Assembly (NCBI RefSeq): GCF_000014265.1
Contig: NC_008312.1
Span: 660,001-692,000 of the forward strand
Length of the DNA stretch: 32,000 nt
Reading direction: 5' to 3'
Origin: Trichodesmium erythraeum IMS101
GTDB taxonomy: Bacteria > Cyanobacteriota > Cyanobacteriia > Cyanobacteriales > Microcoleaceae
Shown here: positions 7,323 through 25,695 of the stretch, in pieces
How positions within the stretch are numbered: position 1 is the stretch's first letter
How the letters are laid out: each line of letters starts with the position of its first letter
Notes under the pieces: model-generated
Database searches by the model: none
Seen by the model: the letters and a program-made list of their open reading frames with translations, nothing else
What the model was told of the DNA's origin: nothing
Program-made: the position numbers and the translations under genes

Positions 7323-9340
7323 TCACCAGGTTCAGGATTTTGGTTGGTATGCACCTGAACGTAGAGGTTGCCATGAAATAAGTTGAATAGAGAAGTCGTA
7401 ACGGGAGTAGTTCCCGGCATTTGAGCAGGAGATAGAATGGCTATTTCCCCAGCTGGAATATCGCCCCCTTCCAGAATGCTTGCTTCAACTATACTACTTT
7501 TTGCCTTAGATATGGTAATGTTTTCTGTTATTTTAACCCTGGCACCGTTGTCAAAGTTGAGCTGAGTTCCCTCAAAAATGTTGAGTTTATCTTCAGGTTC
7601 TTCATCTCGCAATTTGATGCCTAAAGCACCATTATTGTAGGCTTCAACAACTTCAATTTCTAATTTAGGAGCTTTCCAGTCACCATAAACACCATCAGAT
7701 TTAGGCTCAGAATGGCGAGCAAAATTGGCAGCAGCATCAGACCAATCCCACTTACCTATAATCCTTTCATTTTCGTAATCAATCTCAATGTTATCATCAT
7801 CTTCCGATGGTGTCCCAAAGACGTTCAAAACGTGACTGCCATCAGTGCCGTAGCCGCGGTGGTGAAAGTGAATTTCGGTAATGGCGTTCTCAGCTGTACG
7901 CTTTACAGGATCTTCAATTAGGTCAAGTCCATTTAATTCAATGGTATATTCTATTTCTGTCTGTTCTGCATTCAGGCTAAAAGTTGCAAGTCCTGTAGCA
8001 TCTGAATCTACTCCATTTTGACTGCTATCTAAGAAAGCTTTAAATTCTTGAGCAGGTTCAGTCATTCCGTACTCTTCTAGCAGATAATTTTGAGCGGCCA
8101 GAATAGTATCTTGGTCTACATCGGGGGCAGCAGAGAGGTTTTGATTGTAGAGAATATAAACAGGATCGGAAGGAATGCTATCAGGAATATTAGTCTCAAC
8201 CTCAATTGGCAACAAGTAAAGCCCGTCATCAATACCTGTAGGTGAAGTTCCTTCCTGTAACTCCATGACGTAATGCCAGTGGTCATTACCTGGTTCGTCA
8301 TATACTGCATAATAGTAAGGTTTTCCCTTTACAACACCTTCCCCTGTGGTGACTTCATTGGCAAATTCTGCATACCATTCACCTTTATCATTAACATCCC
8401 AGTTTTCTTGAGACCAGGTCATCACCTCTCCACCTGTAGCCACAAAATCTTCACCATTCCATACCTTCAGCTCATCTAGAAAGTTGACTTGGAAATAGGT
8501 ATTGCGTTCGCGATCGAAAGAATCATCAGCAGGACTCCCGTCTACAGGAGTTTCATAGAACATATCTATCTGTGGTGTAAAGCCTGGAAAATAGGATGCG
8601 TTATTAGTATAACGATAGTCAAAGGCAGTATCTTTTTCTTCTATTTCCCGGTCATCCCAAATCCCAACTGGACTTAAAGTGAGATAGTCATCAGAAAATA
8701 TATTGGTGTAGGCGTTACTCACCCTATCATCTTTGCCAAGATAGGCTCTGACTTTACCTGTTTCATCTTGACCGACATAAAATTGTAACCCGTGAAATAC
8801 TCCAGGATAATCTTGAATAACTTGTGGTAAAAAAGCTATCTCTGAAGCAACTGAACCAATGCGGCTTTCTAAATCCCAAGTTCCCCCTTTTAATGGGTTG
8901 CCCACCTGATGTTTTGAAGCAGCAATATTGGCTCCAGTGAATTTATGTAAAAGTTGGAGCAAGTTATCTGATTGACTGGCAATATTACAACTATAGAGTA
9001 ATATATCGACAATTCCCCATTCTTGGAGATATCCGGTATATTTGGGAAGATTCTGCTCGCTTATTGGTGTTTTTCCCAAATATAAAATGCCAGGGTCGCC
9101 GTGACAAACAATATGTAAACTATTAGTTGGGTAATTAGATAAAAGTTCGGTAATTTGTTCTATACCATCACGCTTAGGGTCAATTAAAGCTACTTTTGTT
9201 TCTGGAGTAACTCCTGTAGTTAACTGGCGATAATTTTCCACTCTCGTGTCAATTACCATTAATCTTTTCTGCTGTCGCACTTGCTGCAAATTTTGGTTGA
9301 TTTCTATTGATTCTGTAGCTTTTTTTAAGATTGAGTTCAT
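6287..9340 (-). CDS. Secreted DUF4347 / CHRD / RTX-repeat protein, paralog B (1017 aa, full length)
   Basis: GAGGA 8 nt upstream of the ATG. The N-terminus (LMVIDTRVENYRQL..DGIEQITELL..SLHIVCHGDPGILYLG..ILLYSCNIA..TGANIAASKHQVGNPLKGGTWDLE) has the DUF4347 pattern seen at the start of giant RTX/cadherin-type exoproteins. CHRD signatures and about 10 GGxGxD nonapeptides follow. The C-terminal tail resembles a type I secretion substrate. Confidence 0.9.
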   Translation of the reverse strand: MNSILKKATESIEINQNLQQVRQQKRLMVIDTRVENYRQLTTGVTPETKVALIDPKRDGIEQITELLSNYPTNSLHIVCHGDPGILYLGKTPISEQNLPKYTGYLQEWGIVDILLYSCNIASQSDNLLQLLHKFTGANIAASKHQVGNPLKGGTWDLESRIGSVASEIAFLPQVIQDYPGVFHGLQFYVGQDETGKVRAYLGKDDRVSNAYTNIFSDDYLTLSPVGIWDDREIEEKDTAFDYRYTNNASYFPGFTPQIDMFYETPVDGSPADDSFDRERNTYFQVNFLDELKVWNGEDFVATGGEVMTWSQENWDVNDKGEWYAEFANEVTTGEGVVKGKPYYYAVYDEPGNDHWHYVMELQEGTSPTGIDDGLYLLPIEVETNIPDSIPSDPVYILYNQNLSAAPDVDQDTILAAQNYLLEEYGMTEPAQEFKAFLDSSQNGVDSDATGLATFSLNAEQTEIEYTIELNGLDLIEDPVKRTAENAITEIHFHHRGYGTDGSHVLNVFGTPSEDDDNIEIDYENERIIGKWDWSDAAANFARHSEPKSDGVYGDWKAPKLEIEVVEAYNNGALGIKLRDEEPEDKLNIFEGTQLNFDNGARVKITENITISKAKSSIVEASILEGGDIPAGEIAILSPAQMPGTTPVTTSLFNLFHGNLYVQVHTNQNPEPGDIRGQVLPVRTLADAEDDVLSGGTGNELFELDAADVGGIEIEELAGRETLTLEGMETSMSNLHREDNDLIIDVNQDGSFQTAEDLTLKNFFADEVGVVGKGYIELVDEISGNEILRGVSSSGKDLVHGTSEDDIRQGKGGNDVISGFGGNDELYGNRGDDLLKGGDGNDILKGGYENDTLKGNSGNDTLIGWQGFDILLGGSGEDNLKGGIGRDRLNGGKDDDLLSGGASQDKFIFAANKTFSEADLGVDEITDFVSGPDKIILDVTVFTAIKTTPGESLDEGEFAVVDNETDVFSADATIVYNSANSTLYYNPNGVENGLGDGGSFALLSNEASLSADDFLVRA

Positions 9341-9537
9341 CTTGACAAATCCTCAAATTGATAAAAATTTCTAATAAAGGAATCCTAATTTCTCTCTAAA
9401 TTTTTTGTCAAAAGACAATTTGTCAAATATAAAATAACTATAAAGTATTGGAGCTGAATTTTAAATTTGTCTTATAGTTGATTTTTTTATTTTTTACCCT
9501 GGCAAACTGAATTATAATAATCCTTCTCAATATAAAG

Positions 9538-9575
9538 AAAAAAAAAGGGGGAGAGAAATTCCCCTTTTGCCCCCT
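9538..9575 (-). terminator. Rho-independent terminator of nrdJ
   Basis: On the minus strand: GGGGGCAAAAGGGGAATTTCTCTCCCCC followed by T9. The sequence is G/C-run hairpins then a 9-T tract, about 70-100 nt downstream of the nrdJ stop (9642-9644). Confidence 0.6.
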
Positions 9576-9641
9576 TTCAAAGGTTTTTTTACTTACATTT
9601 TAGAGCTAGATGCACTACGACATTCTTTTTCACCTCTAGCT

Positions 9642-12600
9642 CTAATGAATTTCGGGTTCTAAACCCTTCAACTCACAAACCATCCCAGAACAAGCAGGAT
9701 CTTGAGGTCCTGTCTCTGGTAACTCACTCGCTAACACATAACCATTCATCAACTCGGAGAAATTATGAGACTTACGTCGTTGTAACACATCCTCTTGCAT
9801 TTTTTCATATTGATCCTTAGAGATATGTTCAAAGGGTAACCGAGGGAACGGTGCATCAAACCGTGCTAACAATGCTGAGGAAATATAACCCTCATCATCG
9901 CGAATTGCTTCATAAATGCGTTTGCCCAAAGGTTCAATTTCTGCTTCAGTTAACAAAATGGTACTACTACTATTATGAGTCGTCCAATTTTTCTGTACTT
10001 CCATGTAAAAATCAAACATAGCAGTAGCACTAAACTTCTCAATAGCAATCTCTTCAACCCCAGGCAAATCTATCCAAGATACCTGTACTGGAATTTCTAC
10101 TAACCATTCTTTAGCCCGTTCGTCAAAAGGATCGTTAAGTAAATTTCCATTTTCATCTTTGCCTGACTGCCCAGGAATTACAGAATAACCATAGTCAAGA
10201 CAAGCTAATGCTACGGGATCATTTTTCGCAAAAGTAATCCGTCGCACCCAGCGTAACCCAAAAGGAGGATGCCAACCAGGGGAAGCATTTGTTAACAGAG
10301 ACTTGGTGTTATGTGATTTCAAAGCACCTTGCCAATACCAAGAGTCATTATCATTTATACCTTCAATGGCAAAATCATAAGAATAATCACACACTGCACC
10401 AATATTAACAGACTCAATTTTGTATGGTGAATAATTCAACACACACTTAGATATAACTACAGGTCCTTCCTGACATTTGATACTGTTATGGTTGAGATAA
10501 TCTAAAGCATCAACATTAGACAACATAGGACTCAAACATAATCCCCATGTATTATTGTGTTGATTTTGTAAGTTCTCCCCTTTAGTATTCTGATATATAC
10601 TAAAACACAGTCCGATAGATTCCCCTATTTGTTGCAGGTTGTGAATAAAATCAGAGCTAGCTGAAGCTATGGATAGTTTTCCATCCTGAGGAACATATCC
10701 ATTAGTATCTATCAGACCACAGAAAAATGATAGCAAAGTAACTCGTGAAGAGCGACGTAAACTCAGAGGTATTCGTTCTAAATCTTCACTTTTCTGTGTT
10801 TTGACAAGCTGGTTTAAGTGCAGCCAGTAGAATAACTGTCGAGAAGCAAAGCATAATTCAAAACGACCGTTAGCAAAGTCATTTAAACTGCCTTTAATAC
10901 CAAATAATTTTTTGCCTTTTTCTTGGAGACCATACAAAACATCAAGTCTGCTATGATAAAAACAAACTTGATATTTGTTTTGAACAATGCAACCATTGCC
11001 GAATAAACAACCTAAAAAGTAAGCTAAGTCTGAAGTCATACTTGCAGGAGTCATGATTTTTTTTGTCAAGACACCACCGTTATGACCTAAAGTTTGAGAG
11101 TTGTTAACCTCTGTATAATCTTCCAACTGTAAAGGTATTAGTAAAGTATCTTCTCGTTTTTGATATTCACCAATACTGTAATCAAGCAACATTCCTGGCT
11201 TAAGATTACAAGCATGTATCCACTTACCCTTGACACTCATCCGATGATTTGGAGTCATGCGTAATTTCCGGCCATTAGCCAGTTTTATTTCTACCAGTTC
11301 CATTGGTTGATTAGCGATCGCTGTCGAAGCTCCAATACCATTACGAACAGTTAATCCTAATCCTACTGTTTCTCCACTGCCAGGTGTGACGACTTCATCT
11401 GCATAGAGCAAACCTTGGTTAAATATTCTCAATGCTGTTTTGTCAAGACAACCGGAAGGTTGAACTGTTGTACAACGGTTGGGACGCTTAAGGTTATGAC
11501 GATCGCAATAATCCCACACCACCCGATGCACTATTTCCCGCCAACGAGTTAAATATTTTGCCTCCTGTTGTTTAAACTCCAGACCTTGAGCTGTTGCCGG
11601 GCGACCTGCTTGCCACCAACGCAACCATTCAATGCCAAAAGCTTTTACAAAAAAGTCAAATAAACCAGTAAAAGATACTCCTACAATAGGGTCTAATTCT
11701 CGACTATAACGATAGCGAGGTTCAAGGAACTCATGCTTAAGTAGAGTTGCCACAGAAAGGGCACCAGCAGTAAAAGCTTCCTCCTGTTCTTTATAGTTAT
11801 TTGGTTCAATTTGATTGAGATGAATTTCCGATAAATTACAATTTCCTGTCAAGGCATTGCCAAAAACACCTTTATGAAATTCCGGCTCTTCAAAACAATA
11901 AGTGTCATGTAATCCTGGTAATTCTTCAACATTTTGAATTGTTTGATATTTACCTTGAAATTTAGCTTCACACACCTTAGTTGTATCTAGTCTTTGACAA
12001 GGAATTTCTCTACAATCAGTAATTTGTAAATAGTAAAGGTCTTGATTTCTTTCTCCTAAATTTGTAGTACAACCGCGACTTGCCATTAAATTGACTGATG
12101 CACGAATACCACATTTTGTCAACAATAATTGCAGTCTTTTTGCTCGTTCATAATCAGATACAGAAATTTTAATTCCATTACCTTTAGTCTCAGAACCATC
12201 TGTATCTGCTAATCCTGCGATAAAAGCAAGAATAGCGGATTTATTCCAACTAGCAATAGTATTTAAAGCATCAGGTTCAGTTTGTAGACGACGCAGTAGT
12301 TCTCCAGAAAACCCTAAATCTATAACATCCACAAAAGAAGGTAGATAATTATATTGTCGTTCCAGTGATTTATTACCAGCAAAAATTAATTCAGCTTTGT
12401 GAGAATAAACCCGAATTTTACCATTACTATTTTGGTCTATGGTTCCATTACCTAGAGCCGCACCCAATGTATAAGCATAAGATAAATTGATAGAATCTCC
12501 ATCATGATAATCTATGATAAAAGGTTCCACATCTAAAGCATATTTGCTATGAGTTAGCAAATCCTTTGTTTGTACTTCTTCATACTTTTTACCAAACCGA

Positions 12601-15600
12601 TCTTTCACAAAAAATCTGTGATATTCTGTCACATCAAGATAGGAACCATCCCCAAATCTGACCCGGTATAATTTTCTGTCTTTTCCTGTTTTCAAAGGAA
12701 TTACTTGACTCCAATTTTTGCCGTTCCAAATTTCAATTTTTTGACCAACAACATCTTTTATTTTGTGAATACTATCGCGAGTAATTAATAGAGTATCTCC
12801 GCTCACACAGTGAAAATTTGAACCAATAATTTCTCCGCAATTGTGAGTTAAACAACCATTAGCGATAAAAGAATTAGTTAAAGGAACATGTAAATCATAA
12901 ACAACTTCCTCTCCAAATTCTTCAACTTTTTTCACCTTTGATATGAACTTAGAATTAATAGTTGACTCAGAATAATTAGCTAACGTTTGTACTAGCAATT
13001 TTTCAGCCTTAACATTTTTACTTGGCGATAGCGGAAAGCCAATTAATTGTTGAAATAAACTGAAGCTAAAACTAGAAATCAATAGTTCATAACTACCCCG
13101 GCATAAACTAACTTCATGAGTTACATTAACAGTCCTATAAGGTACACCTATGTAATCTTTTTCCCTAACTAATCCAACTGTACTAATAATTCCTAAATTA
13201 GAGAGAATTAATTGAATTTGTTGGAGAAGTTTTTCCGAAACCATAGTTAGTTTGATTCTTCTTGAATCTTCATATACTATGCCATCTGCACTAAAAATTC
13301 CTTGTAAAAAACCAATTAAAACTTCCTGAGATTGACTAAGAAAATTATTAGGAAGTTCTTCTTTTCCAACTATACCTAAATCAGCAAAAAACTTTTCTAA
13401 TTTAGGATATTGGGTTGGGAATTCATAGACTCCTTTATGTAGTTTAGTTACATATTCTCTTTCTGTAATTGATGCAACTGCTTTTTCAACAACATTGTAG
13501 GCAGTTTCATAGTCATCCTGGTCAAAAACAAACCCTGTAGCAAAATAATCTTGCTTCCCGCCATGACTATGACTACGAGCTTTTATCTTAACATTATATC
13601 CATCCCTGTACCACCAACCAAGCATTTGAGCTTGAGCAACAGAAATAGTACCTTTGCCAAATTGACCCGCTCCTCCTTGAATATAAATATTGTCATCATC
13701 AGTTAAATCTCTAGTACTAACCCAACCTCGACTAGTAAAATGTTGATGGTCTCCAGTACATCGCATTTGCATTCCATTATTCAGAATAACTTGGTAGGTA
13801 GTTTTAACTCCCGTAGCAAAAGCGATCGCATCTGTTAACCTGACACCAGATAAACCTATAGAACGCAAATCTACCAATGCTTGAAATTGTTTACCTACTA
13901 AATCCTGAATTGCAATTAAACCTTGGTCTGTAGATACTAAAGTATCCCCTGAATGACAAGGGTTAAGTCCTAATCTCGCTAACCGATGTTCCAGTTCATC
14001 ATTAGTAATATTTGGATAGTGTTCTTGAAACCACTTTTTAGCATTATTTTTTTCATACGCTTTCAAGAAATCACTCTTTATTTCTGGAGTAAAAAGTAGA
14101 TCACGATTAGCACGAGCAACCGCTTCACCTGCCCACTGAATGGCGCCTTCACCAGAATAAAACTGTTTTCTCACTGCCTCTACACATTCTTCTAATGTTG
14201 GTTTGTAGTGGAAAACATGAGTATGATTTGCCATTCGCAGAGCATCTCTTTTAGGATCGATACCCCAGTTACCATTTTCATCTTGTCGCCAGAGATTATC
14301 CTTCGCTACAGTAAAGATATGATCGCTATTACTCCCCTGCCTGATACCTGCTGAATTTGAAACTAAAATTCCCTGGCAAACAAACTCATGAATACTGGCA
14401 ACTTCAATATCATAAGTTGATGCTTCCCTCACATCCATCTCAACCTTTTTCACCTTCACCGGAATTAAATCTGTCGCATCAACCACAAACTTTTTCACAG
14501 AAGGAAAAATCATCTGCTTGTGAACTTTGCCCAAATGATCTTGAGAAGTCTTTACTAAAGGTCTAACCATTTCCTTTGGAAACCCCTGGTCTGGGAAAAA
14601 CTTAAGGTGGTTCGGTTTTTGCACTGGGAACTGAGTCGAGTAATTCATCATCAGTTTTTCTACTGCTTCATAACCACCCTCACTTACAGTTACCAACTCA
14701 CCTTCCCATGTTCCAGTTGGCTTTTGCACCGAACCACACAATCTTGTAGTGATTCCTAAAGATGCATATAATGCTTGCACCTGTCGCAGAAAGCCTTGGT
14801 CAACTGAAGTTAAAAGTATACCCTGAGAATGACAACCATCTGCGTCTACTAAACCTGCCAAATAAGCTTGACGAATTTCTGTTGTTCCCATCAGAATACA
14901 CTCAGGAATACAAACAGAGTTAGATGGCTGTTTAAACTGTGACAGATATTTGTTAAGAGTGCTGCTATTTAACTCAAGTTCATAAGCTTGAGTTTGAAAT
15001 TGTTCCAGCGTTCTCAGTCTATGTGTTTCCAAACCAAACTCTTGAGCAACATTAATCAGTCGCTCCAGAATTTCCGGACTATCTTGGGAAACTCGAAACC
15101 TAACTTGCCCTCCATCAGAACCAACCGATCCATTTCCAGACAAGTATCCTAGAAAATAAGCAACTTCGCTCTGTAGAGCGGGTATCGTTATGAGTTTGGC
15201 CTCAGATGATGGAACAGCTTTTAACTCAGGTAGTTCAGTGGGAGTACCCGGTATTGCTTGAGGGACAAAAATTAGGCGATCGCCTTCTTGTAAGTCTTTA
15301 GCCTTAATCATTTTATAGTTACCATACAAATCTTGTAGCACAGCAACTTTATGATCAGGAGTACATTCAAAATATCCATCTTCTGTTTGAATACGACATA
15401 AAGACTGAATACCCTGGTCAAAGAAGTTGGTCACAGGATAAAATCCTTGGCTCGTTAATACGCGATCGCCAATCCGAATTTTTTCAATAGCTACCAACCC
15501 TGAAGCTGTATGTACTAAAGCACCTTCAGGTAAACATCTTCGAATATTCCCGGCAACTATTGTGACTGCTGCTTCGTCAATAAGCAAACAACACTCCACA

Positions 15601-15662
15601 GAATTTAATTGTCGCCCAACTGCTTGATTTAAAATGTTCCCACAACGTTCATATAATTCTGG
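9642..15662 (-). CDS. nrdJ: nrdJ exon 4 (extein segments plus four in-frame inteins)
   Basis: Track ORF 9642..15599, extended 21 codons upstream (PELYERCGNILNQAVGRQLNS) to the 3' splice site of intron 3. The track start 'M' is an internal GTG. Confidence 0.9.
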   Translation of the reverse strand, partial: PELYERCGNILNQAVGRQLNSVECCLLIDEAAVTIVAGNIRRCLPEGALVHTASGLVAIEKIRIGDRVLTSQGFYPVTNFFDQGIQSLCRIQTEDGYFECTPDHKVAVLQDLYGNYKMIKAKDLQEGDRLIFVPQAIPGTPTELPELKAVPSSEAKLITIPALQSEVAYFLGYLSGNGSVGSDGGQVRFRVSQDSPEILERLINVAQEFGLETHRLRTLEQFQTQAYELELNSSTLNKYLSQFKQPSNSVCIPECILMGTTEIRQAYLAGLVDADGCHSQGILLTSVDQGFLRQVQALYASLGITTRLCGSVQKPTGTWEGELVTVSEGGYEAVEKLMMNYSTQFPVQKPNHLKFFPDQGFPKEMVRPLVKTSQDHLGKVHKQMIFPSVKKFVVDATDLIPVKVKKVEMDVREASTYDIEVASIHEFVCQGILVSNSAGIRQGSNSDHIFTVAKDNLWRQDENGNWGIDPKRDALRMANHTHVFHYKPTLEECVEAVRKQFYSGEGAIQWAGEAVARANRDLLFTPEIKSDFLKAYEKNNAKKWFQEHYPNITNDELEHRLARLGLNPCHSGDTLVSTDQGLIAIQDLVGKQFQALVDLRSIGLSGVRLTDAIAFATGVKTTYQVILNNGMQMRCTGDHQHFTSRGWVSTRDLTDDDNIYIQGGAGQFGKGTISVAQAQMLGWWYRDGYNVKIKARSHSHGGKQDYFATGFVFDQDDYETAYNVVEKAVASITEREYVTKLHKGVYEFPTQYPKLEKFFADLGIVGKEELPNNFLSQSQEVLIGFLQGIFSADGIVYEDSRRIKLTMVSEKLLQQIQLILSNLGIISTVGLVREKDYIGVPYRTVNVTHEVSLCRGSYELLISSFSFSLFQQLIGFPLSPSKNVKAEKLLVQTLANYSESTINSKFISKVKKVEEFGEEVVYDLHVPLTNSFIANGCLTHNCGEIIGSNFHCVSGDTLLITRDSIHKIKDVVGQKIEIWNGKNWSQVIPLKTGKDRKLYRVRFGDGSYLDVTEYHRFFVKDRFGKKYEEVQTKDLLTHSKYALDVEPFIIDYHDGDSINLSYAYTLGAALGNGTIDQNSNGKIRVYSHKAELIFAGNKSLERQYNYLPSFVDVIDLGFSGELLRRLQTEPDALNTIASWNKSAILAFIAGLADTDGSETKGNGIKISVSDYERAKRLQLLLTKCGIRASVNLMASRGCTTNLGERNQDLYYLQITDCREIPCQRLDTTKVCEAKFQGKYQTIQNVEELPGLHDTYCFEEPEFHKGVFGNALTGNCNLSEIHLNQIEPNNYKEQEEAFTAGALSVATLLKHEFLEPRYRYSRELDPIVGVSFTGLFDFFVKAFGIEWLRWWQAGRPATAQGLEFKQQEAKYLTRWREIVHRVVWDYCDRHNLKRPNRCTTVQPSGCLDKTALRIFNQGLLYADEVVTPGSGETVGLGLTVRNGIGASTAIANQPMELVEIKLANGRKLRMTPNHRMSVKGKWIHACNLKPGMLLDYSIGEYQKREDTLLIPLQLEDYTEVNNSQTLGHNGGVLTKKIMTPASMTSDLAYFLGCLFGNGCIVQNKYQVCFYHSRLDVLYGLQEKGKKLFGIKGSLNDFANGRFELCFASRQLFYWLHLNQLVKTQKSEDLERIPLSLRRSSRVTLLSFFCGLIDTNGYVPQDGKLSIASASSDFIHNLQQIGESIGLCFSIYQNTKGENLQNQHNNTWGLCLSPMLSNVDALDYLNHNSIKCQEGPVVISKCVLNYSPYKIESVNIGAVCDYSYDFAIEGINDNDSWYWQGALKSHNTKSLLTNASPGWHPPFGLRWVRRITFAKNDPVALACLDYGYSVIPGQSGKDENGNLLNDPFDERAKEWLVEIPVQVSWIDLPGVEEIAIEKFSATAMFDFYMEVQKNWTTHNSSSTILLTEAEIEPLGKRIYEAIRDDEGYISSALLARFDAPFPRLPFEHISKDQYEKMQEDVLQRRKSHNFSELMNGYVLASELPETGPQDPACSGMVCELKGLEPEIH
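10308..11450 (-). mobile_element. Intein 4 (381 aa) with LAGLIDADG homing-endonuclease domain
   Basis: Junctions are TVQPSG|CLDKTALRIF ... GALKSHN|TKSLL. Block B is MTPNHRM. Dodecapeptide motifs are AYFLGCLFGNGCI and LLSFFCGLIDTNGYV. Confidence 0.88.
11841..12809 (-). mobile_element. Intein 3 (323 aa) with LAGLIDADG homing-endonuclease domain
   Basis: Junctions are GSNFH|CVSGDTLLIT ... GNALTGN|CNLSEI. Block B is VTEYHRF. Dodecapeptide motifs are YTLGAALGNGTI and ILAFIAGLADTDGS. The penultimate residue is Gly rather than His. Confidence 0.88.
12840..13958 (-). mobile_element. Intein 2 (373 aa) with LAGLIDADG homing-endonuclease domain
   Basis: Junctions are LGLNP|CHSGDTLVST ... NGCLTHN|CGEII. 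Block B is CTGDHQHF. Dodecapeptide motifs are MLGWWYRDGYN and LIGFLQGIFSADGIV. Confidence 0.88.
14355..15536 (-). mobile_element. Intein 1 (394 aa) with LAGLIDADG homing-endonuclease domain
   Basis: Junctions are AGNIRR|CLPEGALVHT ... QGILVSN|SAGIRQ. Block B is CTPDHKV. Dodecapeptide motifs are AYFLGYLSGNGSV and AYLAGLVDADGC. The penultimate residue is Ser rather than His. Confidence 0.88.
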
Positions 15663-18216
15663 GTTAAACTAAGCAAGTTCATTTCCGGTTACCCTTTATT
15701 GAACCTGCTCGTCTTCAAAACCGTACATGAGACTTTCACCTCATACGGCTTCTCTCTTAGACGCCCCAATTCAAAGGTACATCCCTGCTTTATAGAGTTA
15801 CCATATTGTCTACCCATTGGTATCCTTCTGGTATTTCAGGAGCTTTATTCAATCTTCCGACTGGGATGTCTCCCTCTCTAGTGCAGTTTTAGTATCGTGG
15901 CAGTGTCGATGTAATAACTCTTTGTTCTTGCTTGTGCTATTACCCTTTTCAGACCTCGGAATGACATGGTAAACCTCCATAGTATCCGTTGGTCTGAAAC
16001 TTAGCCCACAAAATGCGCATTTACCTTTCTGCTTTTTCAACAGAGTCGAAACTTCTTTCCTTATGCCTGGACTGTTAACCATTCTACTACTCCAATAAAT
16101 CCAGTCACCATCGTAGGGCGATTTATTATCCTTAACTTTAACGTGTCTTATAATAGACACATCAGAGTGTAGATTTAGTATATATTCCTCATCCTTAAGT
16201 ACCCAACTTTTGGTTCCTTCTCTGTGAGGAAAGTACTTCTCTTTCACCCAGGCTGCTGACTTATTAGAATGTCTCCGGCTTGCCCATCGCCATATTCTCC
16301 TCAATAAGAGATGGTCTAGCTTTTGAAATATGTCATTACTGACTACCGCTGAAAAGTAGTTAGCCCATTCTCTTATTATCGGGTTTAACTTAGTTATCAA
16401 TACCTTGACAGTAGCACTTTTATGAGTATCACATACCTCTGCCATTTTCCGATAATGAGTATTAATACTCTGTTTGGATGGTTTGATCAGCGTTTTGAAC
16501 CCTTGCTTGCTTGTTTTTACCTTCCACTGCCTAACTGTGAATCCTAGAAAGTCAAATCCGGGCTGGTTCCCTTCATATTCTTCTAGTGTGTGAGCAATTC
16601 TGGTTTTTTCCGGTTTCAGTTCCAATCCTATGTTATTTAACCATTCCTGTACCACAGCTTTTGCCTGCATTACTACCTCAATATCTTTGTGTAATATTAC
16701 AAAGTTACCGGCATATCTTACTAAAGATAATGCTTGTATATTATCCCTTTTATTTCCTGGTAGTGTTTCAGCAAAGTCTTGTAGGCATTTTTCCATACCG
16801 TGTAGAGCGATATTTGCTAGCAGGGGACTAATTACCTCTCCTTGTGGTGTACCTAACTCCAAGAGAGGTGGATCGAATTGACTCTTGTCAAATACTCCAG
16901 ACTTTAGCCACTGTTTGACTAATTGTCTATAGGGAGATTTATCTATTTTTCCTAGCAGTGCATGATGGTTAACTTCGCTCATACATTTGGATATGTCAGC
17001 ATTCAGTACATATTTTGGTTCGTCGTTGATACTGAGGTAAATCGCCTGAATAGCGTCATCTGTTGACCGACCCGGCCTAAAACCATAGGTATTAGTTTCA
17101 AAGTGAGCCTCCCATTCTGGTTCCATGCCCAACTTAACTAAAGTTTGCAGTCCCAAGTCGTACAGCGAGTGAATGCCTAACCGGCGCTTCTGGTTTCTAC
17201 CAGTTTTTGGTATTGAGACCTTCTGAGTTGGGCTAGCTTTAAGGTCACGTGATTTTAACAAATCCACCAAGTGGAGTCGCTGCATTGGAGGTAGATTTTT
17301 GATCCCATCTATCCCAGCAGTTTTCTTGCCCTGGTTGTCCTGGGTCACATTTCTAACAGCTAGCAACAAGGCGTCATGACTTTTGATCAGAAGTTTTTGA
17401 TATTTGCGCATCTTGCGGATCTCACCACGGCTGGATGCTCTGTAAATTAACTTTTGCAACTTAAATACATTCTTCTCAACCTTTTTCCAATCTATGTCTC
17501 TCCATTTCAGATTAGGATTAACACAAATTTTATCCGGTATATCGTCTGTATCCCATGCCACGCTTAAAAAGGATTCTGGCTTGTCCATTCTTCTTTTTAG
17601 TGTTTTAGCCTTTTCCATTACTAATTATTACCTTACATTACGTCTAACAGTGGGTACGTCTGCATGATTATGCTTCTTACCCAATCCTACTCTCCTTAAG
17701 ACCTGCAACCTTTGTGCAGACTAACCTTGAATGGCTTCCTAAATTTATCGACCTATTTTATCAGGTGTCTTAAAGAGGTTTCCTCGTTCCCTTATGCCTT
17801 TATTGCGACTGATTTAGCGGGGTAAACTCTCCCGGAGGGTTCTGTCTGATTGTTGATAATATCAAATTAATAATATTACCCATTGACCCCCTGGCTTATT
17901 GCCCTACATCCCACAGCTACCTTTGGGATGGTTCCCGGTTACGGGAGTTTTCTTACCTTCCTGTTCGTCCACTTGTCAATCTCTGCTAGAAGTCTCACTC
18001 TTTTGGTAGTTAAAGCTTTGACCCCATTTAGGCCAGCTTCAGGGATTGATGTTCAGTCTCTACCCTGTGGCCTACGCTGTCAACCTAACAACAAGGCGGA
18101 TGGAATTTCACCATCAAGATCATAAGAGTTATCCATTAGTCGAGGTTTCCCTCACTTGTTGACTAAGGACGGCCATTTATATCTAGTTTCCTAGCTTAGT
18201 GGCCAACGAGTCGCAC
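15663..18216 (-). mobile_element. Group II intron 3 of nrdJ (2554 nt, ORF-containing)
   Basis: The 5' end is GTGCGACTCGTTGGCC (GUGYG consensus). Domain V is AAGCCGTATGAGGTGAAAGTCTCATGTACGGTTT (about 15718-15751). Domain VI has a bulged A 7 nt from the 3' end (..GCTTAGTTTAAC|). Removing the intron joins ..GVANPVKL to PELYERCG.. in frame. Confidence 0.85.
15849..17618 (-). CDS. Intron 3-encoded protein: RT-like / maturase (X) / DNA-binding / HNH endonuclease, 589 aa
   Basis: RT blocks: TAGIDG, RRLGIHSLYDLGLQ, YGFRPGRSTDDA, LNADISKC, GTPQGEVISPLLANIALHG. The RT-5 box reads YAGN instead of YADD. The X domain contains LNPIIREWANYF. C-terminal HNH: CAFCGLSF..VYHVIPRSEKG..LLHRHCHDTKT. Confidence 0.9.
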   Translation of the reverse strand: MEKAKTLKRRMDKPESFLSVAWDTDDIPDKICVNPNLKWRDIDWKKVEKNVFKLQKLIYRASSRGEIRKMRKYQKLLIKSHDALLLAVRNVTQDNQGKKTAGIDGIKNLPPMQRLHLVDLLKSRDLKASPTQKVSIPKTGRNQKRRLGIHSLYDLGLQTLVKLGMEPEWEAHFETNTYGFRPGRSTDDAIQAIYLSINDEPKYVLNADISKCMSEVNHHALLGKIDKSPYRQLVKQWLKSGVFDKSQFDPPLLELGTPQGEVISPLLANIALHGMEKCLQDFAETLPGNKRDNIQALSLVRYAGNFVILHKDIEVVMQAKAVVQEWLNNIGLELKPEKTRIAHTLEEYEGNQPGFDFLGFTVRQWKVKTSKQGFKTLIKPSKQSINTHYRKMAEVCDTHKSATVKVLITKLNPIIREWANYFSAVVSNDIFQKLDHLLLRRIWRWASRRHSNKSAAWVKEKYFPHREGTKSWVLKDEEYILNLHSDVSIIRHVKVKDNKSPYDGDWIYWSSRMVNSPGIRKEVSTLLKKQKGKCAFCGLSFRPTDTMEVYHVIPRSEKGNSTSKNKELLHRHCHDTKTALERETSQSED

Positions 18217-18522
18217 TAATTTTACCGGGTTCGCAACACCTCCAAATCCCTTTAAAGGCTCTCCCGCAGGTCTAACATGACTCAAGTCAATGATCACATT
18301 AACTTTTCCTGAAAACTGCTTATCTGTTGACAACTCCAACAAAGCTCGATAAGACTCTACCCAACCTTGACGACTATCACCAACAAAAATTTCTGCTTTT
18401 GCTTTGTCTTGATGACATTTTACTTCTGTCAGCTCACGACGTAACTCAGCAGGAGTAGTACCAATGTCACCTCGCAATACAATATTTAGATAATTGTGAA
18501 TCGGTGGTAGTTGATTTATATA
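18217..18522 (-). CDS. nrdJ: nrdJ exon 3 (102 codons)
   Basis: YINQLPPIHNYLNIVLRGDIGTTPAELRR...DLSHVRPAGEPLKGFGGVANPVKL. It is bounded by the 3' end of intron 2 (..TTAGTTTAAC|TAT) and the 5' end of intron 3 (TTA|GTGCG). The length is a multiple of 3. Confidence 0.85.
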
Positions 18523-20279
18523 GTTAAACTAAGCAAACCCATTTCCGGCTGCCCTTTATAGAGTCTGCTCGTCTTCAAAACCGTGCGTGAGACTTTCACC
18601 TCACACGGCTCCTCTCCTAAACGTCCCAATTCAAGGGCACATCCTTAAAATTCCACCTAAGACCTCATGAGTCCTAATAATTTACTGCTTTTAAATCCTC
18701 AGCAGTCTTAGAGTCGTGGCAATGTTGGTGCAATACCTATTTATTCTTATAGGTATTATCACCACCCTTAGACTTAGGAAAAACCCGGTCAACCTTGATT
18801 TATACCTTGGTCTAAAGTGTATTCCACACCATGCGCATTTACCTTTTTGCCATTTTAACACAATTGTAACTTCCTTTCTTACACCTGGGTATGTACCGAT
18901 TTTGCTAGTCCAATAAGTCCAGTCACCATCTAATAGTGATTTCTTACCTTTAACTTTGATGTGCCTTGTAATAGGTACATCTGAGTATTGGTTTAGTATA
19001 TATTCCCCCCTTTTAATAATCCAATTGTTATTCTAAATTTTGGGGAAATACTCTTATTTAACCCATTTGTCTAACTTATTTGGATGCCAACAACCCTGCC
19101 CATTGACCTAATCTCTGTCATAAAAGCACCTTCATTTTATCAAAGAGCTTTTTACTGACTACAAACGTGCATCCCTCAAAAGGTAACCTACCTAGTTTCA
19201 CCAGTACTTGTAAGACCCTATCGTACATCAAACAGGATGCCTAATGGACATTTTTTATCTTTACCTGGCTTTGGTATCGGTGACTCTAGAGTTGGACTTA
19301 CTTTGAGATAACCTGATGCAAGTAGGTCTATCAGGTTGAATTGTTGAATCTGTAGTAGATTTTTAATACCATCTACACCCACAGCCTTCTAACCGGGTTA
19401 ACTGTGTCACCCGTTTAACAGCCAGCAACAAGGCGTAATAACTTGTGCTCAGAAGTCTTTGGCATTTACACTTTCAATGGAATATCGCCACGGCTGGATG
19501 CTCTGTAAATTAACTTTTGCAACTTAAATACATTCTTCAGGACCCGTCTCCAATAAATGTCTATCAATTTAAGGTTAGGATTAACACTTACTTGATTCAG
19601 TATATCATCTGTATTCCATGCCACACTTAAAAATGCTCTAAAGTTTCCTAGCTTCCTTTTTAGTGTTTTAGCCTTGTTCATCGCTAATTGTTACCCTACA
19701 TTACGTTTAACAGTGAGTACGTCTGCATAGATATGCTTCTTACTCAATCCTACTCTCTCTAAGACCTGCGTCCATTTGCGCAGATTGACCTTGAATGGCT
19801 TCCTAAGTTCTCGACCTATATTCTTAGGTGTCATAAAGAGGTTTCCTCGTTCCCTTATACCTTTATTACGGTTGATTTAGTGGGGTAAATTCTCCCGGAG
19901 GGTTCAACATGGTTGTTAATAATCTTCCACATATAAGATTATTCAAAGACCCCCTGACTTTCGTCCTAAACTCCTTAGCTACCTTTGAAGTTGTTATTAG
20001 TTACGAGAGTTTAATTACCTTCCTATTCGTCCACTTGTCAGCCTTTGCTAAAAGTCTCACTCATTTGGTAGTTAGAGCTTTGACCCCATTTAGGCCAGCT
20101 TTAGGGATTGATGTTCAGTCTCTACCCTATGGCCTATGCTGTCAACCCAACAACGGGGCGGATGGAATTTCACCATCAAGGACATAAGAGTTTTCTAGGC
20201 CGATGTTTCAAATCATTTCTTAACCTAGAAGGCTTGCTATACCTGCTTTTAGCAGTTTTTACTAGCCAACGAGTCGCAC
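18523..20279 (-). mobile_element. Group II intron 2 of nrdJ (1757 nt), a paralog of intron 3 with a decayed ORF
   Basis: The 5' end GTGCGACTCGTTGGC matches intron 3 over the first 15 nt. Domain I is about 85% identical to intron 3 by eye. Domain V is GAGCCGTGTGAGGTGAAAGTCTCACGCACGGTTT (about 18578-18611). The 3' end ..GCTTAGTTTAAC| is identical to intron 3. Confidence 0.85.
18674..19681 (-). pseudogene. Remnant of the intron 2-encoded RT/maturase
   Basis: The N-terminal 71 aa (MNKAKTLKRKLGNFRAFLSVAWNTDD...LQKLIYRASSRGD) parallel the intron 3 ORF. After that the frame is broken by stops and frameshifts, and most of RT blocks 3-7 and X are deleted. C-terminal traces remain (..DGDWTYW.., ..CAWCG.., HCHDSKTAEDL). 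Confidence 0.8.
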
Positions 20280-20420
20280 ATGTGGTTCCAATACGGCACC
20301 CGTACCACAGCCCATCATAGCTAAGTCCATCAATAGACCGAAGGAGTACCAATCTATAATATTAGTGGACGAACAGTTATAAGCCCCCGAAAAGTTTCCC
20401 TGTTGTAAAATCCATTCTGT
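20280..20420 (-). CDS. nrdJ: nrdJ exon 2 (47 codons)
   Basis: TEWILQQGNFSGAYNCSSTNIIDWYSFGLLMDLAMMGCGTGAVLEPH. It lies between the 3' end of intron 1 (..GCTTAGGGTAAT|ACA) and the 5' end of intron 2 (CAT|GTGCG). Confidence 0.85.
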
Positions 20421-22946
20421 ATTACCCTAAGCCACCCCATCGCTGTGGTGACTCGGCTTCAGAACCGTGCATGAGACTTTCACCTCACACGGCTCCTCAA
20501 TGATTTGGCTTTTGTCATAAGTACCGTCTCGTTTGGTTTTGATGTCATGGCAGTGATTATGTAGTAATTAGTAATTTCTGTAGTTATCTTTACTGTTTTC
20601 CTAAACTTACCCAAGCTTACACATACATGATTACACAAGCTTTGGTAGCTAAGTTTCTATTTCACAGAAGACCAATGACAGCAGTCTGTAACTTATCTTC
20701 CCTTTCCATTACATCTTCATCTGGTGAAGTACATACTACATTCTGTATATTTTCCTGATTGTTTCTTGAGCACTTTGGCAACTTTTGTTGGTCATTCAGC
20801 ACTTTTTCCCATACGGGTAGTCCAGTAGATTAGATTTCCATCATATGGACTACTCTCTCCCTTTACCTTCACAAAGTTTTTGATCTGAAAGTCTTCGTGA
20901 TATACAAGACAGATTCTATTACCGTTTTCAATTGTTTTGAATATCCAATTGCTTTTACCTTTGGTGCCAAAATATTTTTTAATCGTCTCTTTTATCGACT
21001 TGTGATGATGTCTAGACTTACCCCATGCAATTAATTTTAAAGTTAAGAGGTGGTCAAGCTCCTTAAATGTTTTAGCACTATTAACTTTTGAGTAATAGTT
21101 ACTCCATCCAGTAATAATTGGATTTAATCCCTTGATTAAATCTATCTGAGATTTGCAAGATTTGAATTTGTCAATCTCAGAGGCTAATCTTTGATAATGA
21201 GCTTTGATTTCCTCTTTACTTGGCATTATGTAGGTTTTGTATCCTAATGGTTTTCCGTATGTATTTTTGCCTGTTGTATATTTTCCTACTGGATATTGAC
21301 GAATGTTAAAGCCAAGGAAATTAAAACCCGGTTCCTCTTCTCCTACCTGAATGAGTGTATGAGTTAAACGAGTTTTTTCTGGTTTGAGTTCTAGCCCCAT
21401 TCCTCTAAGAAATTCCTCTACTAAGGCTTTTGCTTTTGTAACCACATTCAAATTCGGGTGAAGTATTACAAAATGATCTGCATATCTTACCAAAGTTATT
21501 TCTTTCTCATTTTTAACCTTTTTTCCCGAAAGACTATAAGCAAATTCCTTAACAATTTTCTCCATCCCATGTAAGGCGATATTTGCCCATAACCCTGAGA
21601 TTACTTCTCCTTGGGAGATACCTTCATCCATTAGGAACCACGACTCATTGTCATATACTCCAGACTTGAGCCAAGCTTTAATCTGTCTCCTGACTTTTGG
21701 AAAGGTTCCAATTTTATCTAACAGCTTTTCGTGGTCAATATTATCAAAGCATTTGGCAATATCAGCATTCAAGACATATTTACTTTTCTGCTTTATTGCT
21801 GCTTTAATTCCTTCTACGGCATCCATACAACTTCTGCCCGGTCTGAAACCATAAATATTAGGTTCAAATTTAGCTTCCCATTCAGGTTCTATTGCCATCT
21901 TCACAAGCCCTTGCTTTGCTCTTTCAGATATTGTCAGAATTCCTAAAGGTCTTTTTTCTGTCTTCCCTGGTTTGGGAATCCATATTCTACAAGTAGATTT
22001 GGCTTTATGGCTCATTACTAAGTTATTGGCCAAGTTTACTCTTTCTTTGAGCGTTAGACTTTTCTTGCCATCAATACCCGCAGTTTTCTGACCTTTATTA
22101 TCCTGTATTACTCTGCGAGTCGCCAGCATTTTAGCCGACCAAGAATTTAACAGGGTCTTTTGCAGTTTTCTTACCGCCTTGACATCTCCCCTTTGAGCAG
22201 CTTGATAGATTCTTTTTTGCAACTTGTACACCACGCGTTTTAGTTTTCGCCAGTTCACAGGTGTCCATACCACCATCGGATTTTTCCGTGTTTTAGTCAT
22301 TATTCATTGCTATTCAAAACTCCATCTTCCAAATCATCGGGAATTTGTCTGCATATCCTATTTATTACAAATAAGCATTAGCTTCTGATTCCATCTCTTC
22401 CTGTAGTGGCATACAGTTGATACCTACTCAAAAATCGACCTTTTAGAGGGCCAATACAGGATTACTTCGTTCCGTATAACCTTTGCTTGAACATTTAGGA
22501 TGGTACTACTCGGCCGGAGACTGGAGGGCGTGACCTGATAATGGTGGTATTTTCAGGTTCCGTTTGTCTCAGTGTCTTTTGACTGCAGCGTATCAACCAT
22601 TCTTTTCGCTACTTACTGGGTTACGACCGTTCAGACATACCTTCACTTTCGTTATCCATGTGTTCTTGCTTGCTGGGATTTACCTTATGGTTCGGTATTA
22701 CCAGCGTTTATCCCCGCTTTATCCTTTGATAATCAGTCTCTAGATAGGGGAAATGCTTTCACTCCCACGCTTTGGAGGGTAGGACTTTCACCTACAAGGT
22801 TATACAGTTCTCAAGGTTCCATGGTTTGTAGGTTTGTTAAAAGATAATTAACTTTTACTACAAATCCTTTAAGCCTTGGGAGTCATCCTCGTAGTTTATT
22901 GACTTAAAGTGTCTTGTGCACTACGTTTCGACTCAACGAATCACAC
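20421..22946 (-). mobile_element. Group II intron 1 of nrdJ (2526 nt, ORF-containing, a different lineage from introns 2 and 3)
   Basis: The 5' end is GTGTGATTCG. Domain V is GAGCCGTGTGAGGTGAAAGTCTCATGCACGGTTC (about 20462-20495). Domain VI has a bulged A 7 nt from the 3' end. Removing the intron joins ..GRWLWVGG to TEWIL.. in frame. Confidence 0.85.
20792..22300 (-). CDS. Intron 1-encoded protein: RT-like / maturase, 502 aa, En domain lost
   Basis: RT blocks: TAGIDG, RPLGILTISERAKQ, YGFRPGRSCMDA, LNADIAKCFDNIDH, GISQGEVISGLWANIALHG. The RT-5 box reads YADH instead of YADD. The X domain contains LNPIITGWSNYY. The ORF ends right after SPYDGNLIYW. Confidence 0.9.
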   Translation of the reverse strand: MTKTRKNPMVVWTPVNWRKLKRVVYKLQKRIYQAAQRGDVKAVRKLQKTLLNSWSAKMLATRRVIQDNKGQKTAGIDGKKSLTLKERVNLANNLVMSHKAKSTCRIWIPKPGKTEKRPLGILTISERAKQGLVKMAIEPEWEAKFEPNIYGFRPGRSCMDAVEGIKAAIKQKSKYVLNADIAKCFDNIDHEKLLDKIGTFPKVRRQIKAWLKSGVYDNESWFLMDEGISQGEVISGLWANIALHGMEKIVKEFAYSLSGKKVKNEKEITLVRYADHFVILHPNLNVVTKAKALVEEFLRGMGLELKPEKTRLTHTLIQVGEEEPGFNFLGFNIRQYPVGKYTTGKNTYGKPLGYKTYIMPSKEEIKAHYQRLASEIDKFKSCKSQIDLIKGLNPIITGWSNYYSKVNSAKTFKELDHLLTLKLIAWGKSRHHHKSIKETIKKYFGTKGKSNWIFKTIENGNRICLVYHEDFQIKNFVKVKGESSPYDGNLIYWTTRMGKSAE

Positions 22947-23198
22947 GCCACCGACCCATAACCAACGACCAGAGGATAAGGCCTTCAGTTGGCTTTGCAT
23001 CCGATAGAGTAAGTCTGTTTCTTCCTCTGTGAGTTGGCCCAACTTTCTCAGGCCATCAATTGTGCGATCGCACACTTCTACCCAAGTCTCACGGCCAGTT
23101 TTTGTCTTACGGCTATAAGTTCTGTAAAATACTGGATTAGCAGTGGGAGCTGCTTCTGGGAACTCCCTCTGACGTATTTTTTCTACTTCTTGTACCAT
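22947..23198 (-). CDS. nrdJ: nrdJ exon 1 (84 codons)
   Basis: ATG at 23196-23198 gives MVQEVEKIRQREFPEAAPTANPVFYRTYSRK...SGRWLWVGG, a typical class II RNR N-terminus. The longer track ORF (start 23297) adds a low-complexity AT-rich leader. Confidence 0.8.
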
Positions 23199-23915
23199 AG
23201 TCAAATAGAAAATATAATTATTTTCAAAAAAAATTAACAGTCTACAATGGTAGCAATTTTTTATATATACTGTCAAACTATTGACAGATTTACTCAATTA
23301 CTATAAACCTTAAAAATTGCTAAATGGCGCTTTTAATTTTACTTTTGACTTTTAATTTATGCCATATATTTTTAACAATTTGAATAGTTATACAACCGAG
23401 AGGCTAATTGTTTAAATTAATAACTGCCATATTTTCTGGTAAACTTTCCTTGATAATTCGGGAATCATCTTGTCTTAATGTAACAGTGATAATCTAATTT
23501 CATTAATTTTTAAAATTACCAATTAATTCTAATTATTTGAGTAAATAACTTGACATATCAAAGTAAACTACTAATAAAATATATCTGTTAAAATTCAAGT
23601 CTTCCCTGATGTTAAACTGTCAGGAAATAAACTATAATAACTTATTTTAAAATTCTCCATTTTTATTTAGATTCAACTCAAAAATGTTAGTTATTTTTCC
23701 GTATCCCTAATTTTTTTTGTCTAAAATATTATCGCTTTTTTGCAAAAGAAAATATGCCATGGGCAATAATTTTTCCAGACTTTATTTCTAGTTTTTTAAT
23801 TATCACAAGCTAATTTAGTATTACTATATTTTCCCAGTATAGTAATTTTCATAAAAAGATCAGTGTCAACACAAACTATCACCATTTTTCCAACTCTAAA
23901 AATATTCATTCGACA

Positions 23916-24992: not shown

Positions 24993-25032
24993 ATAAGTAA
25001 AAATTTCACTTGCAATTAGTTATTTTACCTGG
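24859..25032. repeat. Tandem duplication (period about 108 bp, plus a partial third copy) of the permease 5' end and leader
   Basis: ATTGCCTGTAATAATCTCTTCAATATATAAGTAAAAATTTCACTAGCAATTAGTTGTTTTGCCTG (24859-) compared with ATTGCTTGTAATAATTCCTTCAACATATAAGTAAAAATTTCACTTGCAATTAGTTATTTTACCTG (24967-). A partial copy lies at 24941-24963. Confidence 0.75.
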
Positions 25033-25182
25033 TTATACCTCAATTTTCTATCCACCAAACTAACATAAAATACATCAATATTTTCTACCAAAGATTGATA
25101 ATTGATAGGAATATCCATTCATACCAAGGATAAAGTGAGGGTCAACCCTCCCTATTGCAAAATTTACTGCTTACTAAAATGT

Positions 25183-25695
25183 CTAGTATTCAATTAAACT
25201 AATAATTGGCACTTTTGGTAATTTTTCACGGCCACCTAATTCCTTTAACTCAATAACAAAAGCAAAACCCACTAAATTACACTTTGCTTTTTCAATTAAT
25301 TGAGTTGTAGCTCCTGCAGTTCCACCCGTTGCCAGCAGATCGTCAATTACTAAAACTCTACTACCTGCTGGCATTGCATCTTGGTGTACCTCTAGACTGT
25401 CTTGGCCATACTCTAAATCATAAGAAACTGAGTAAACTTCTGCGGGTAGCTTTCCGGGTTTGCGAACTGGAATAAAGCCTACATTCAACTGATAAGCTAA
25501 AGGCATACCAAAAATAAACCCTCTGGATTCGATGCCTACTACATAGTCTGGTTTAAATTCTAAGCATTTTTCTGTCAAAATGTCAATAGTGTAATGTAGA
25601 CCATCTGTATTGCTTAAAAGAGTAGTAATATCTCGGAATATAATTCCAGATTTAGGGAAATTTGGGATTTCGCGGATTAAATTTTTTAGTTCCAT
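25183..25695 (-). CDS. apt: Adenine phosphoribosyltransferase
   Basis: 170 aa. [15 protein letters not shown], the PRPP-binding loop [16 protein letters not shown], and typical Apt length and layout. Confidence 0.92.

Follow-up and report, generated by a model that had tools for sequence, protein, structure and literature searches.

Three group II introns and four inteins in the ribonucleotide reductase gene nrdJ of Trichodesmium erythraeum, and the element sets of its relatives

Bacterial group II introns, as exemplified by Ll.LtrB and by the classes of the Zimmerly database, typically share their terminal sequences, a domain V/VI, pairings between exon-binding sites (EBS) of the intron and intron-binding sites (IBS) of the exon, and an intron-encoded protein (IEP) in domain IV, which is a reverse transcriptase (RT) and maturase with or without an HNH domain. 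They are typically found in mobile DNA or away from conserved genes. We analysed a stretch of 32,000 nucleotides from the cyanobacterium Trichodesmium erythraeum IMS101 (contig NC_008312.1, positions 660,001 to 692,000; this whole stretch is called the window below), in which three introns with the same features lie inside one core metabolic gene, nrdJ (also called RIR). This gene encodes a ribonucleotide reductase (RNR) and is in addition interrupted by four inteins. It contradicts the rule that group II introns of bacteria stay outside conserved genes. It is also a textbook case of genetic parasitism taken to the extreme, as three splicing events at the RNA level and four at the protein level would have to precede the finished enzyme, a core one for the supply of DNA precursors.

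This seven-element gene is already known. The proteins encoded in its first and third introns are identical to ABG49891.1 and ABG49886.1 of T. erythraeum IMS101, and the upstream ABC permease and adenine phosphoribosyltransferase match ABG49893.1 and ABG49894.1 exactly. Hence, the gene is the one published in 2003 by Liu, Yang and Meng (J Biol Chem 278:46826), as the initial annotation, made from the letters alone, had suspected; passages of PMC2443231 and PMC2874743, which restate the 2003 finding (three group II introns and four inteins), agree with this identification. Positions 9373-27618 of the window are also 100% identical to contig JAGGDU010000146.1, and JAGGDU is given as T. erythraeum in a passage of PMC9366434. 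The published gene and the present one are the same gene in the same organism with the same number of elements, without any established difference between them, and the rediscovery adds nothing new. The only potentially fresh material concerns the gain and loss of elements across the relatives of Trichodesmium and the ribonucleoside-triphosphate reductases (RTPR) with several inteins in metagenomes; a limited literature search found no paper describing this comparative pattern of gain and loss.

Other conserved genes of the same genome are likewise interrupted: dnaN has four group II introns devoid of an open reading frame (ORF), thyX has an intein and an intron, and dnaE is split, with inteins (the four introns of dnaN and the single one of thyX are entries of Table 2 of PMC4143802). 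None of them matches nrdJ, in which two kinds of element add up to seven. The initial annotation had called the nrdJ gene extreme on the grounds that group II introns avoid housekeeping genes; seven elements in one gene are indeed striking, but an intron in a housekeeping gene is unexceptional within T. erythraeum, as dnaN and thyX illustrate. The RIR gene of Nostoc punctiforme is another RTPR gene of a cyanobacterium in which self-splicing elements find a hot spot, but it is a single group I intron, the one of Meng, Zhang and Liu (2007), that a passage of PMC12702839 reports there.

The whole nrdJ gene occupies positions 9642-23198 of the minus strand, on which all of its parts given below also lie, with its ATG at 23198 and its stop codon at 9642-9644; the N-terminus of its product, MVQEVE, lines up with the MVRELE or MVQELE of the homologues. 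An ORF map of positions 9000-24000 gives, on the minus strand, an ORF of 1985 aa (9642-15599), one of 589 aa (15849-17618) and one of 502 aa (20792-22300), and two short ORFs (18196-18477 and 22941-23297) which match RNR domains. The four exons are exon 1 (22947-23198, codons 1-84, with the domain RNR_Alpha, PF17975), exon 2 (20280-20420, codons 85-131, delimited by in-silico splicing and homologue alignment), exon 3 (18217-18522, codons 132-233, with the RNR-II insertion domain, PF21995) and exon 4 (9642-15662, codons 234-768 plus the four inteins in a continuous frame). Joined together, they amount to 6720 nt and 2239 codons, with one stop, the terminal one. When the four inteins are also removed, a mature coding sequence of 2307 nt remains, which encodes 768 aa. 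The introns are found after codons 84, 131 and 233 of this mature sequence and the inteins after codons 275, 407, 417 and 547, and the inserted DNA represents 83.0% of the 13,557-nt gene. This in-silico joining reproduced to the base the introns, exons and inteins which the initial annotation had delimited, along with their sums; the length of the gene, the size of the product and the inserted share came out at the same values when recomputed, and the junction peptides that had been predicted (NIRR/SAGIR, LNP/CGEIIGSNFH/CNLSE and VQPSG/TKSLL) are correct. The abstract of the 2003 paper reportedly gives 768 aa and 83% of inserted DNA as well. On both sides of the gene, we noticed consensus matches only: a candidate terminator, made of a GC-rich hairpin followed by a T-run (9548-9564, minus strand), about 80 nt past the stop codon, and promoter-like hexamers 5' of the ATG.

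The conceptual 768-aa product matches TIGR02505, the equivalog model of the adenosylcobalamin-dependent ribonucleoside-triphosphate reductase, with 711.2 bits over residues 9-731 (the cut-off is 340.05 bits), and the dimeric-type NrdJ_Z model TIGR02504 with merely 25.5 bits. By these two scores the mature product is a class II RNR of the monomeric, RTPR type. Its only solved relative is the RTPR of L. leichmannii (PDB 1l1l), in which C408 is the thiyl-radical cysteine and C419 one of the redox-active pair. The query segment GLNPCGEIIGSNFHCNLSE lines up with 404-GTNPCGEISLANGEPCNLFEV of the 1l1l chain, that is, with the active-site loop (N406, C408, E410, C419), C408 of the query being aligned with C408 of the chain and C418 with C419. 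The +1 Cys of intein 2 is the equivalent of C408 and the +1 Cys of intein 3 is the equivalent of C419, the two insertion sites being 10 residues apart. As far as this alignment goes, the catalytic cysteines of the enzyme double as the +1 nucleophiles of inteins 2 and 3.

The seven junctions were then compared with genes that carry no insertion. A scan of GTDB species genomes, which favours uninterrupted genes since split genes score lower, and from whose output Trichodesmium itself is absent, returned 80 uninterrupted cyanobacterial homologues with 61-72% identity. When 14 of these are aligned to the conceptual product, the seven junctions are all free of gaps, and the motifs on either side hardly vary (for instance WLWVGG/TEWI at the end of exon 1; the junction of exon 3 was checked in the same way). 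The initial annotation had named alignment gaps lying off the predicted boundaries as the observation which would speak against it; the 14 homologues are gap-free at all seven. This fit far exceeds what is expected by chance.

Intron 1 (20421-22946, 2526 nt, GTGTG...AT), intron 2 (18523-20279, 1757 nt, GTGCG...AC) and intron 3 (15663-18216, 2554 nt, GTGCG...AC) all have the termini 5' GTGYG and 3' AY. Over the whole window, Rfam detects exactly three matches to Intron_gpII (RF00029), at 20421-20497 (49.1 bits), 18523-18613 (57.3 bits) and 15663-15753 (59 bits), and exactly three matches to the domain V model RF04357 (among them 62.1 bits at 20458-20498 in intron 1 and 63 bits in intron 3), all of them on the minus strand; the scores, 49-59 and 58.6-63 bits, are to be compared with gathering cut-offs of 40 and 53 bits, respectively. 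These domain V/VI matches end at 20421, 18523 and 15663, which are the predicted 3' splice sites. The best-fitting domain V model is of the plastid (chloroplast-like) type; this one model hints that the introns of the window belong to the chloroplast-like class. The three introns all interrupt the frame between two codons, in phase 0 (the chance of this is 1/27), and in-frame stops are met 1, 5 and 6 codons into them (intron 1 opens with GTG TGA). This means that the translation of an unspliced RNA would abort at once.

The 5' splice sites can be checked through the pairing of each intron with its own 5' exon. EBS1 is found at the homologous intron position 348 in introns 2 and 3, where it reads ATGTGG (19927-19932) and TAATTT (17864-17869), respectively; each is the perfect 6-bp complement of its own IBS1, the last six bases of the exon (CCACAT and AAATTA). 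This covariation at a homologous position independently backs the exact placement of the 5' splice sites. EBS2 reads CTAATA (19995-20000) in intron 2, where it forms 6 bp with IBS2, including one G-U, and ACCGGG (17934-17939) in intron 3, where it is, like EBS1, a perfect complement of the 5' exon. For intron 1, the positions were placed by alignment with the orthologous intron of a metagenomic relative described below (L089), in which they are conserved with the same spacing: EBS2, ACCCA (22617-22621, intron position 326), pairs 5/5 with IBS2, and EBS1, ACCACC (22543-22548, intron position 399), pairs 5/6 with IBS1. In all three introns, EBS2 is located about 70 nt 5' of EBS1. Another candidate for EBS1 of intron 1, GCCACT at position 537, has a 6/6 pairing; it was dropped, being unconserved in L089 and about 210 nt away from EBS2.

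Intact IEPs are present in introns 1 and 3 only. IEP1 (20792-22300, 502 aa) has the Pfam domains RVT_N, RVT_1 and GIIM (maturase) and no HNH, and IEP3 (15849-17618, 589 aa) has RVT_N, RVT_1, GIIM and HNH. The orthologous IEP in L089 (L089:1710-3398, 562 aa) keeps the HNH domain which IEP1 of the window does not have, which suggests that the endonuclease (En) domain, and hence autonomous mobility, was lost from IEP1 of T. erythraeum. Intron 2 resembles intron 3, with 78% identity over its 5' part (about 1020 nt) and 69% over its 3' part, and a tblastn comparison finds in it residues 1-178 and 423-579 of IEP3 spread over several frames, the longest open stretch being 113 codons. Because of these fragments in several frames and of this similarity, intron 2 is a deletion derivative of an element of the intron 3 type, with a decayed IEP pseudogene whose remnant is frameshifted and whose RT core is deleted. 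ORF-less group II introns are an accepted subtype. Intron 2 presumably relies on a maturase acting in trans.

The four inteins have lengths which are all multiples of 3 nucleotides. Intein 1 (14355-15536, 1182 nt, 394 aa) occupies site a, NIRR/C...VSN/SAGIR, and matches Intein_splicing (44.4 bits), LAGLIDADG_3 and Hom_end; its block B is TPDH. Intein 2 (12840-13958, 1119 nt, 373 aa) occupies site b, LNP/C...THN/CGE, and matches Intein_splicing (56.4 bits) and LAGLIDADG_3, with TGDH as block B. At site c, NFH/C...TGN/CNL, intein 3 (11841-12809, 969 nt, 323 aa) scores 36.4 bits with LAGLIDADG_3 and 16.2 bits with Intein_splicing, and its block B is TEYH. Finally, intein 4 (10308-11450, 1143 nt, 381 aa), at site d, QPSG/C...SHN/TKSLL, matches LAGLIDADG_3 and Hom_end and scores 22.4 bits with Intein_splicing; its block B is TPNH. 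All four have Cys1, a block-B TxxH, a terminal Asn and a +1 residue which is Ser, Cys, Cys and Thr, respectively, and in all four the LAGLIDADG domain (PF14528) is above the Pfam cut-off. Each intein is 75-87% identical to its same-site counterparts from Hydrocoleum, Okeania, Dapis and other Trichodesmium (80% for intein 1 with respect to Hydrocoleum and Okeania, 84-87% for intein 3 and 78-80% for intein 4 with respect to the relatives), whereas the four inteins of the window share just 21-25% identity among themselves. This means that they are site-specific alleles and not intragenic duplications. In the LAGLIDADG motifs, the conserved acidic residue is changed to Asn in motif 1 of inteins 1 (FLGYLSGNG) and 4 (FLGCLFGNG) and in motif 2 of intein 4 (FCGLIDTNG); judged from these residues, intein 4 probably has no active homing endonuclease.

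We propose the following route from this gene to the enzyme. A pre-mRNA of about 13.6 kb would be transcribed from nrdJ, and the three phase-0 group II introns would be cut out of it, after codons 84, 131 and 233, by ribozyme-catalysed splicing, each of them finding its own 5' exon through the pairing of EBS1 and EBS2 with IBS1 and IBS2. Introns 1 and 3 would use their own RT/maturase proteins, and intron 2 would be spliced, most likely, in trans by the IEP of its close relative intron 3, a role which we infer for IEP3. The ligated mRNA of 6.7 kb would be translated into a precursor of 2239 aa, and ribosomes entering an unspliced intron would halt within 1-6 codons. From this precursor the four LAGLIDADG-type inteins, located after residues 275, 407, 417 and 547, are predicted to excise themselves by means of Cys1, the block-B TxxH, the terminal Asn and the +1 Ser, Cys, Cys and Thr, leaving the 768-aa enzyme. 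The 2003 study is reported to have found all four inteins to splice in E. coli. Each molecule of enzyme would in this way require seven events of self-removal at two levels, RNA and protein, of which the splicing of the introns and the dependence on a maturase acting in trans are taken from the literature. Table 2 of PMC4143802 lists split RNA-seq reads, in vivo, for three nrdJ introns (under Tery_0433, Tery_0433 and Tery_0428), with a maturase entered as yes, no and yes. This is the pattern of the IEPs observed here, and the spacing of the IEP accessions (five) equals the spacing of the locus tags. According to a passage of PMC4649490, ORF-less introns of Trichodesmium depend on factors encoded in trans, as shown in E. 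coli (Meng et al. 2005).

TIGR02505, Rfam, Pfam and the homologue alignment all agree with the reading of the initial annotation, in which three group II introns and four inteins interrupt a gene for a class II RNR. We give a probability of roughly 96% to the complete explanation, namely that the gene of the window is the known nrdJ (RIR) of T. erythraeum IMS101, encoding an RTPR-type class II RNR and carrying these seven elements, with the splicing scheme described above. Several points weigh against it. The length of the gene in the 2003 abstract is reportedly 13,650 bp, to be compared with the 13,557 nt measured here, a gap of 93 nt. EBS1 of intron 1 mispairs at the last base of the exon, where a C faces an A. 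The Intein_splicing scores of inteins 3 and 4 (16.2 and 22.4 bits) are under the cut-off of this model (PF14890, 35.8 bits), which inteins 1 and 2 exceed; the penultimate His, which is present in inteins 2 (THN) and 4 (SHN), is missing from inteins 1 (VSN) and 3 (TGN). Because of the missing His and of the weak Hint scores, the sequence alone does not prove the splicing competence of inteins 1, 3 and 4. Finally, the split-read counts which Table 2 of PMC4143802 gives for the nrdJ introns are low (2, 10 and 10).

The weak Hint scores of inteins 3 and 4 and the C-termini of inteins 1 and 3 would be accounted for if at least one intein were dead for splicing, and either stayed in the protein or cleaved it. 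A penultimate His is not universal among active inteins, and the termini ..VSN/S and ..TGN/C recur in the same-site inteins of many distant hosts, which argues for functional variants. All four inteins have, moreover, the Cys1, the TxxH, the terminal Asn and a nucleophilic +1 residue, and the retention of intein 2 or 3, which interrupt the active-site loop, would destroy the enzyme; we therefore regard a dead intein as very unlikely. It is even harder to believe that the whole gene is a decaying pseudogene, killed by its insertions, with another RNR supplying the deoxynucleotides (dNTPs). The inserted 83% of the gene and the loss of the IEP of intron 2 could be taken in that sense, but 768 codons are open once the elements are removed, the aligned catalytic motifs are intact and the product scores 711 bits as an RTPR. 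The relatives that carry other sets of elements keep intact frames too, and spliced transcripts exist in vivo according to the table of PMC4143802.

Independent assemblies bear on the same question. The same architecture is found on at least eight independently assembled contigs with 98.9-100% identity. In seven environmental contigs (98.9-99.9% identity with the window), the exteins, the inteins and the IEPs are all free of stop codons and frameshifts, which again argues against a pseudogene; the single-nucleotide variants (SNVs), 9 in the exteins and 16 in the inteins, are too few for a ratio of nonsynonymous to synonymous changes (dN/dS). One could finally suppose that copies of a repeated intron were misassembled into nrdJ, as introns 2 and 3 do come from a repeated family and as one of the contigs (L085) has a chimera-like cluster of SNVs inside intron 2. 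We consider such an artefact to be next to impossible: the encoded proteins match exactly the entries on the IMS101 chromosome, the at least eight contigs share the full arrangement, and each intron has an EBS specific to its own exon. It is mainly inside intron 2 that the environmental contigs depart from the window, and most of this SNV density comes from the dense cluster of L085 (intron 2, positions 442-751). As this cluster lies at a contig end, paralogous introns were probably joined there into a chimera during assembly. Another contig, L083, differs from the window at positions 278, 280 and 283 of intron 2, in the EBS2 region.

The initial annotation had also pointed out that introns and inteins occupy separate halves of the gene. 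The pattern is real, the introns being found at codons 84-233 and the inteins at codons 275-547, but its significance is weak: an order in which three of seven elements come before all four others has a probability of 1/35, and three positions drawn at random would all lie 5' of codon 275 with a probability of 0.046. With P about 0.03-0.05, a non-random segregation is suggestive at best. In addition, the intein sites a-d are filled in many combinations across about 120 homologous RTPRs. As these sites are shared across cyanobacterial RTPRs, the inteins are located where conserved homing sites surround the active site, and their position is not a free variable.

The RTPRs of Hydrocoleum CS-953, Okeania, Dapis, Nostoc, Trichodesmium sp. 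MO_231.B1 and several metagenomic sequences (P0013, P0050, P0051 and P0088) share sites a-d with the window and carry allelic inteins there, with the same lengths as in the window (394, about 370, 323 and about 381 aa, respectively). Most of the intein-bearing cyanobacterial RTPRs differ from the gene of the window in having one to three inteins and no introns; in P0013 and P0051 all four sites are filled, again without introns. The sets of the close relatives comprise 0-1 introns and 2-4 inteins. The metagenomic gene L089 (L089:812-9245), with 88% extein identity, has only intron 1, at the same site as in the window and 73% identical to it, with an HNH-bearing IEP, together with inteins a, b and c, but no intein d; it has also a 155-aa mini-intein at a fifth site, WTTHN/SSST (the borders being KHWTTHN/C...ILVMN/TSSTI), and its protein cluster has 189 members. 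In Trichodesmium sp. MO_231.B1 (L090:6001-10377, GCA_029979625.1), the syntenic nrdJ gene has no introns and only inteins b and c, and is flanked as in the window by the permease and by DUF4347/CHRD/RTX genes. Its intein at site b is 26% identical to intein 2 of the window, which means that two intein lineages use this one site. In Hydrocoleum CS-953, a close relative, sites a, b and d hold inteins, and introns are absent.

Among the metagenomic contigs, P0013 (L092:6001-12591) has an intein at each of sites a-d, lacks introns, and carries matches to ParB-like, SSB and DNA-polymerase-exonuclease PHROG families along with many small unknown ORFs; this phage-like setting could reflect a viral carriage of RTPR inteins. 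The distant homologue P0088, without introns, has inteins a, c and d and another one at a sixth site near residue 99. P0050 (a contig of 10.6 kb from an ENA metagenome, 49% extein identity) has no introns and a single ORF with five inteins, at the four sites a-d and at the fifth site, after WTTHN, with lengths of 249, 128, about 321, 380 and about 137 aa. According to a passage of PMC10710043, the maximum had so far been the four inteins per protein of the Trichodesmium gene; P0050 exceeds this published figure. Since the sets of elements differ between syntenic relatives, and since introns 2 and 3 are 78% identical with retargeted EBS, one may see the seven-element state as a recent, lineage-specific snapshot, in which introns 2 and 3 were gained in the T. 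erythraeum lineage by ectopic retrotransposition of a single intron family, the phage-like contig hinting at a viral shuttling of RTPR inteins. We hold this scenario only tentatively and would not bet on it at even odds.

Elsewhere in the window, two paralogous proteins with CHRD and RTX repeats (HemolysinCabind) are encoded downstream of nrdJ in opposite orientations, at 14-2110 on the plus strand and at 6287-9340 on the minus strand; the second has in addition a DUF4347 domain, and the same type of gene adjoins nrdJ in MO_231.B1. At the other end of the window, an IS630-like transposase (30677-31768, plus strand) is divided into two ORFs, the first with HTH_33/HTH_23 and the second with DDE_3. 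It is probably a frameshifted insertion sequence (IS) element, or one which uses a programmed frameshift.

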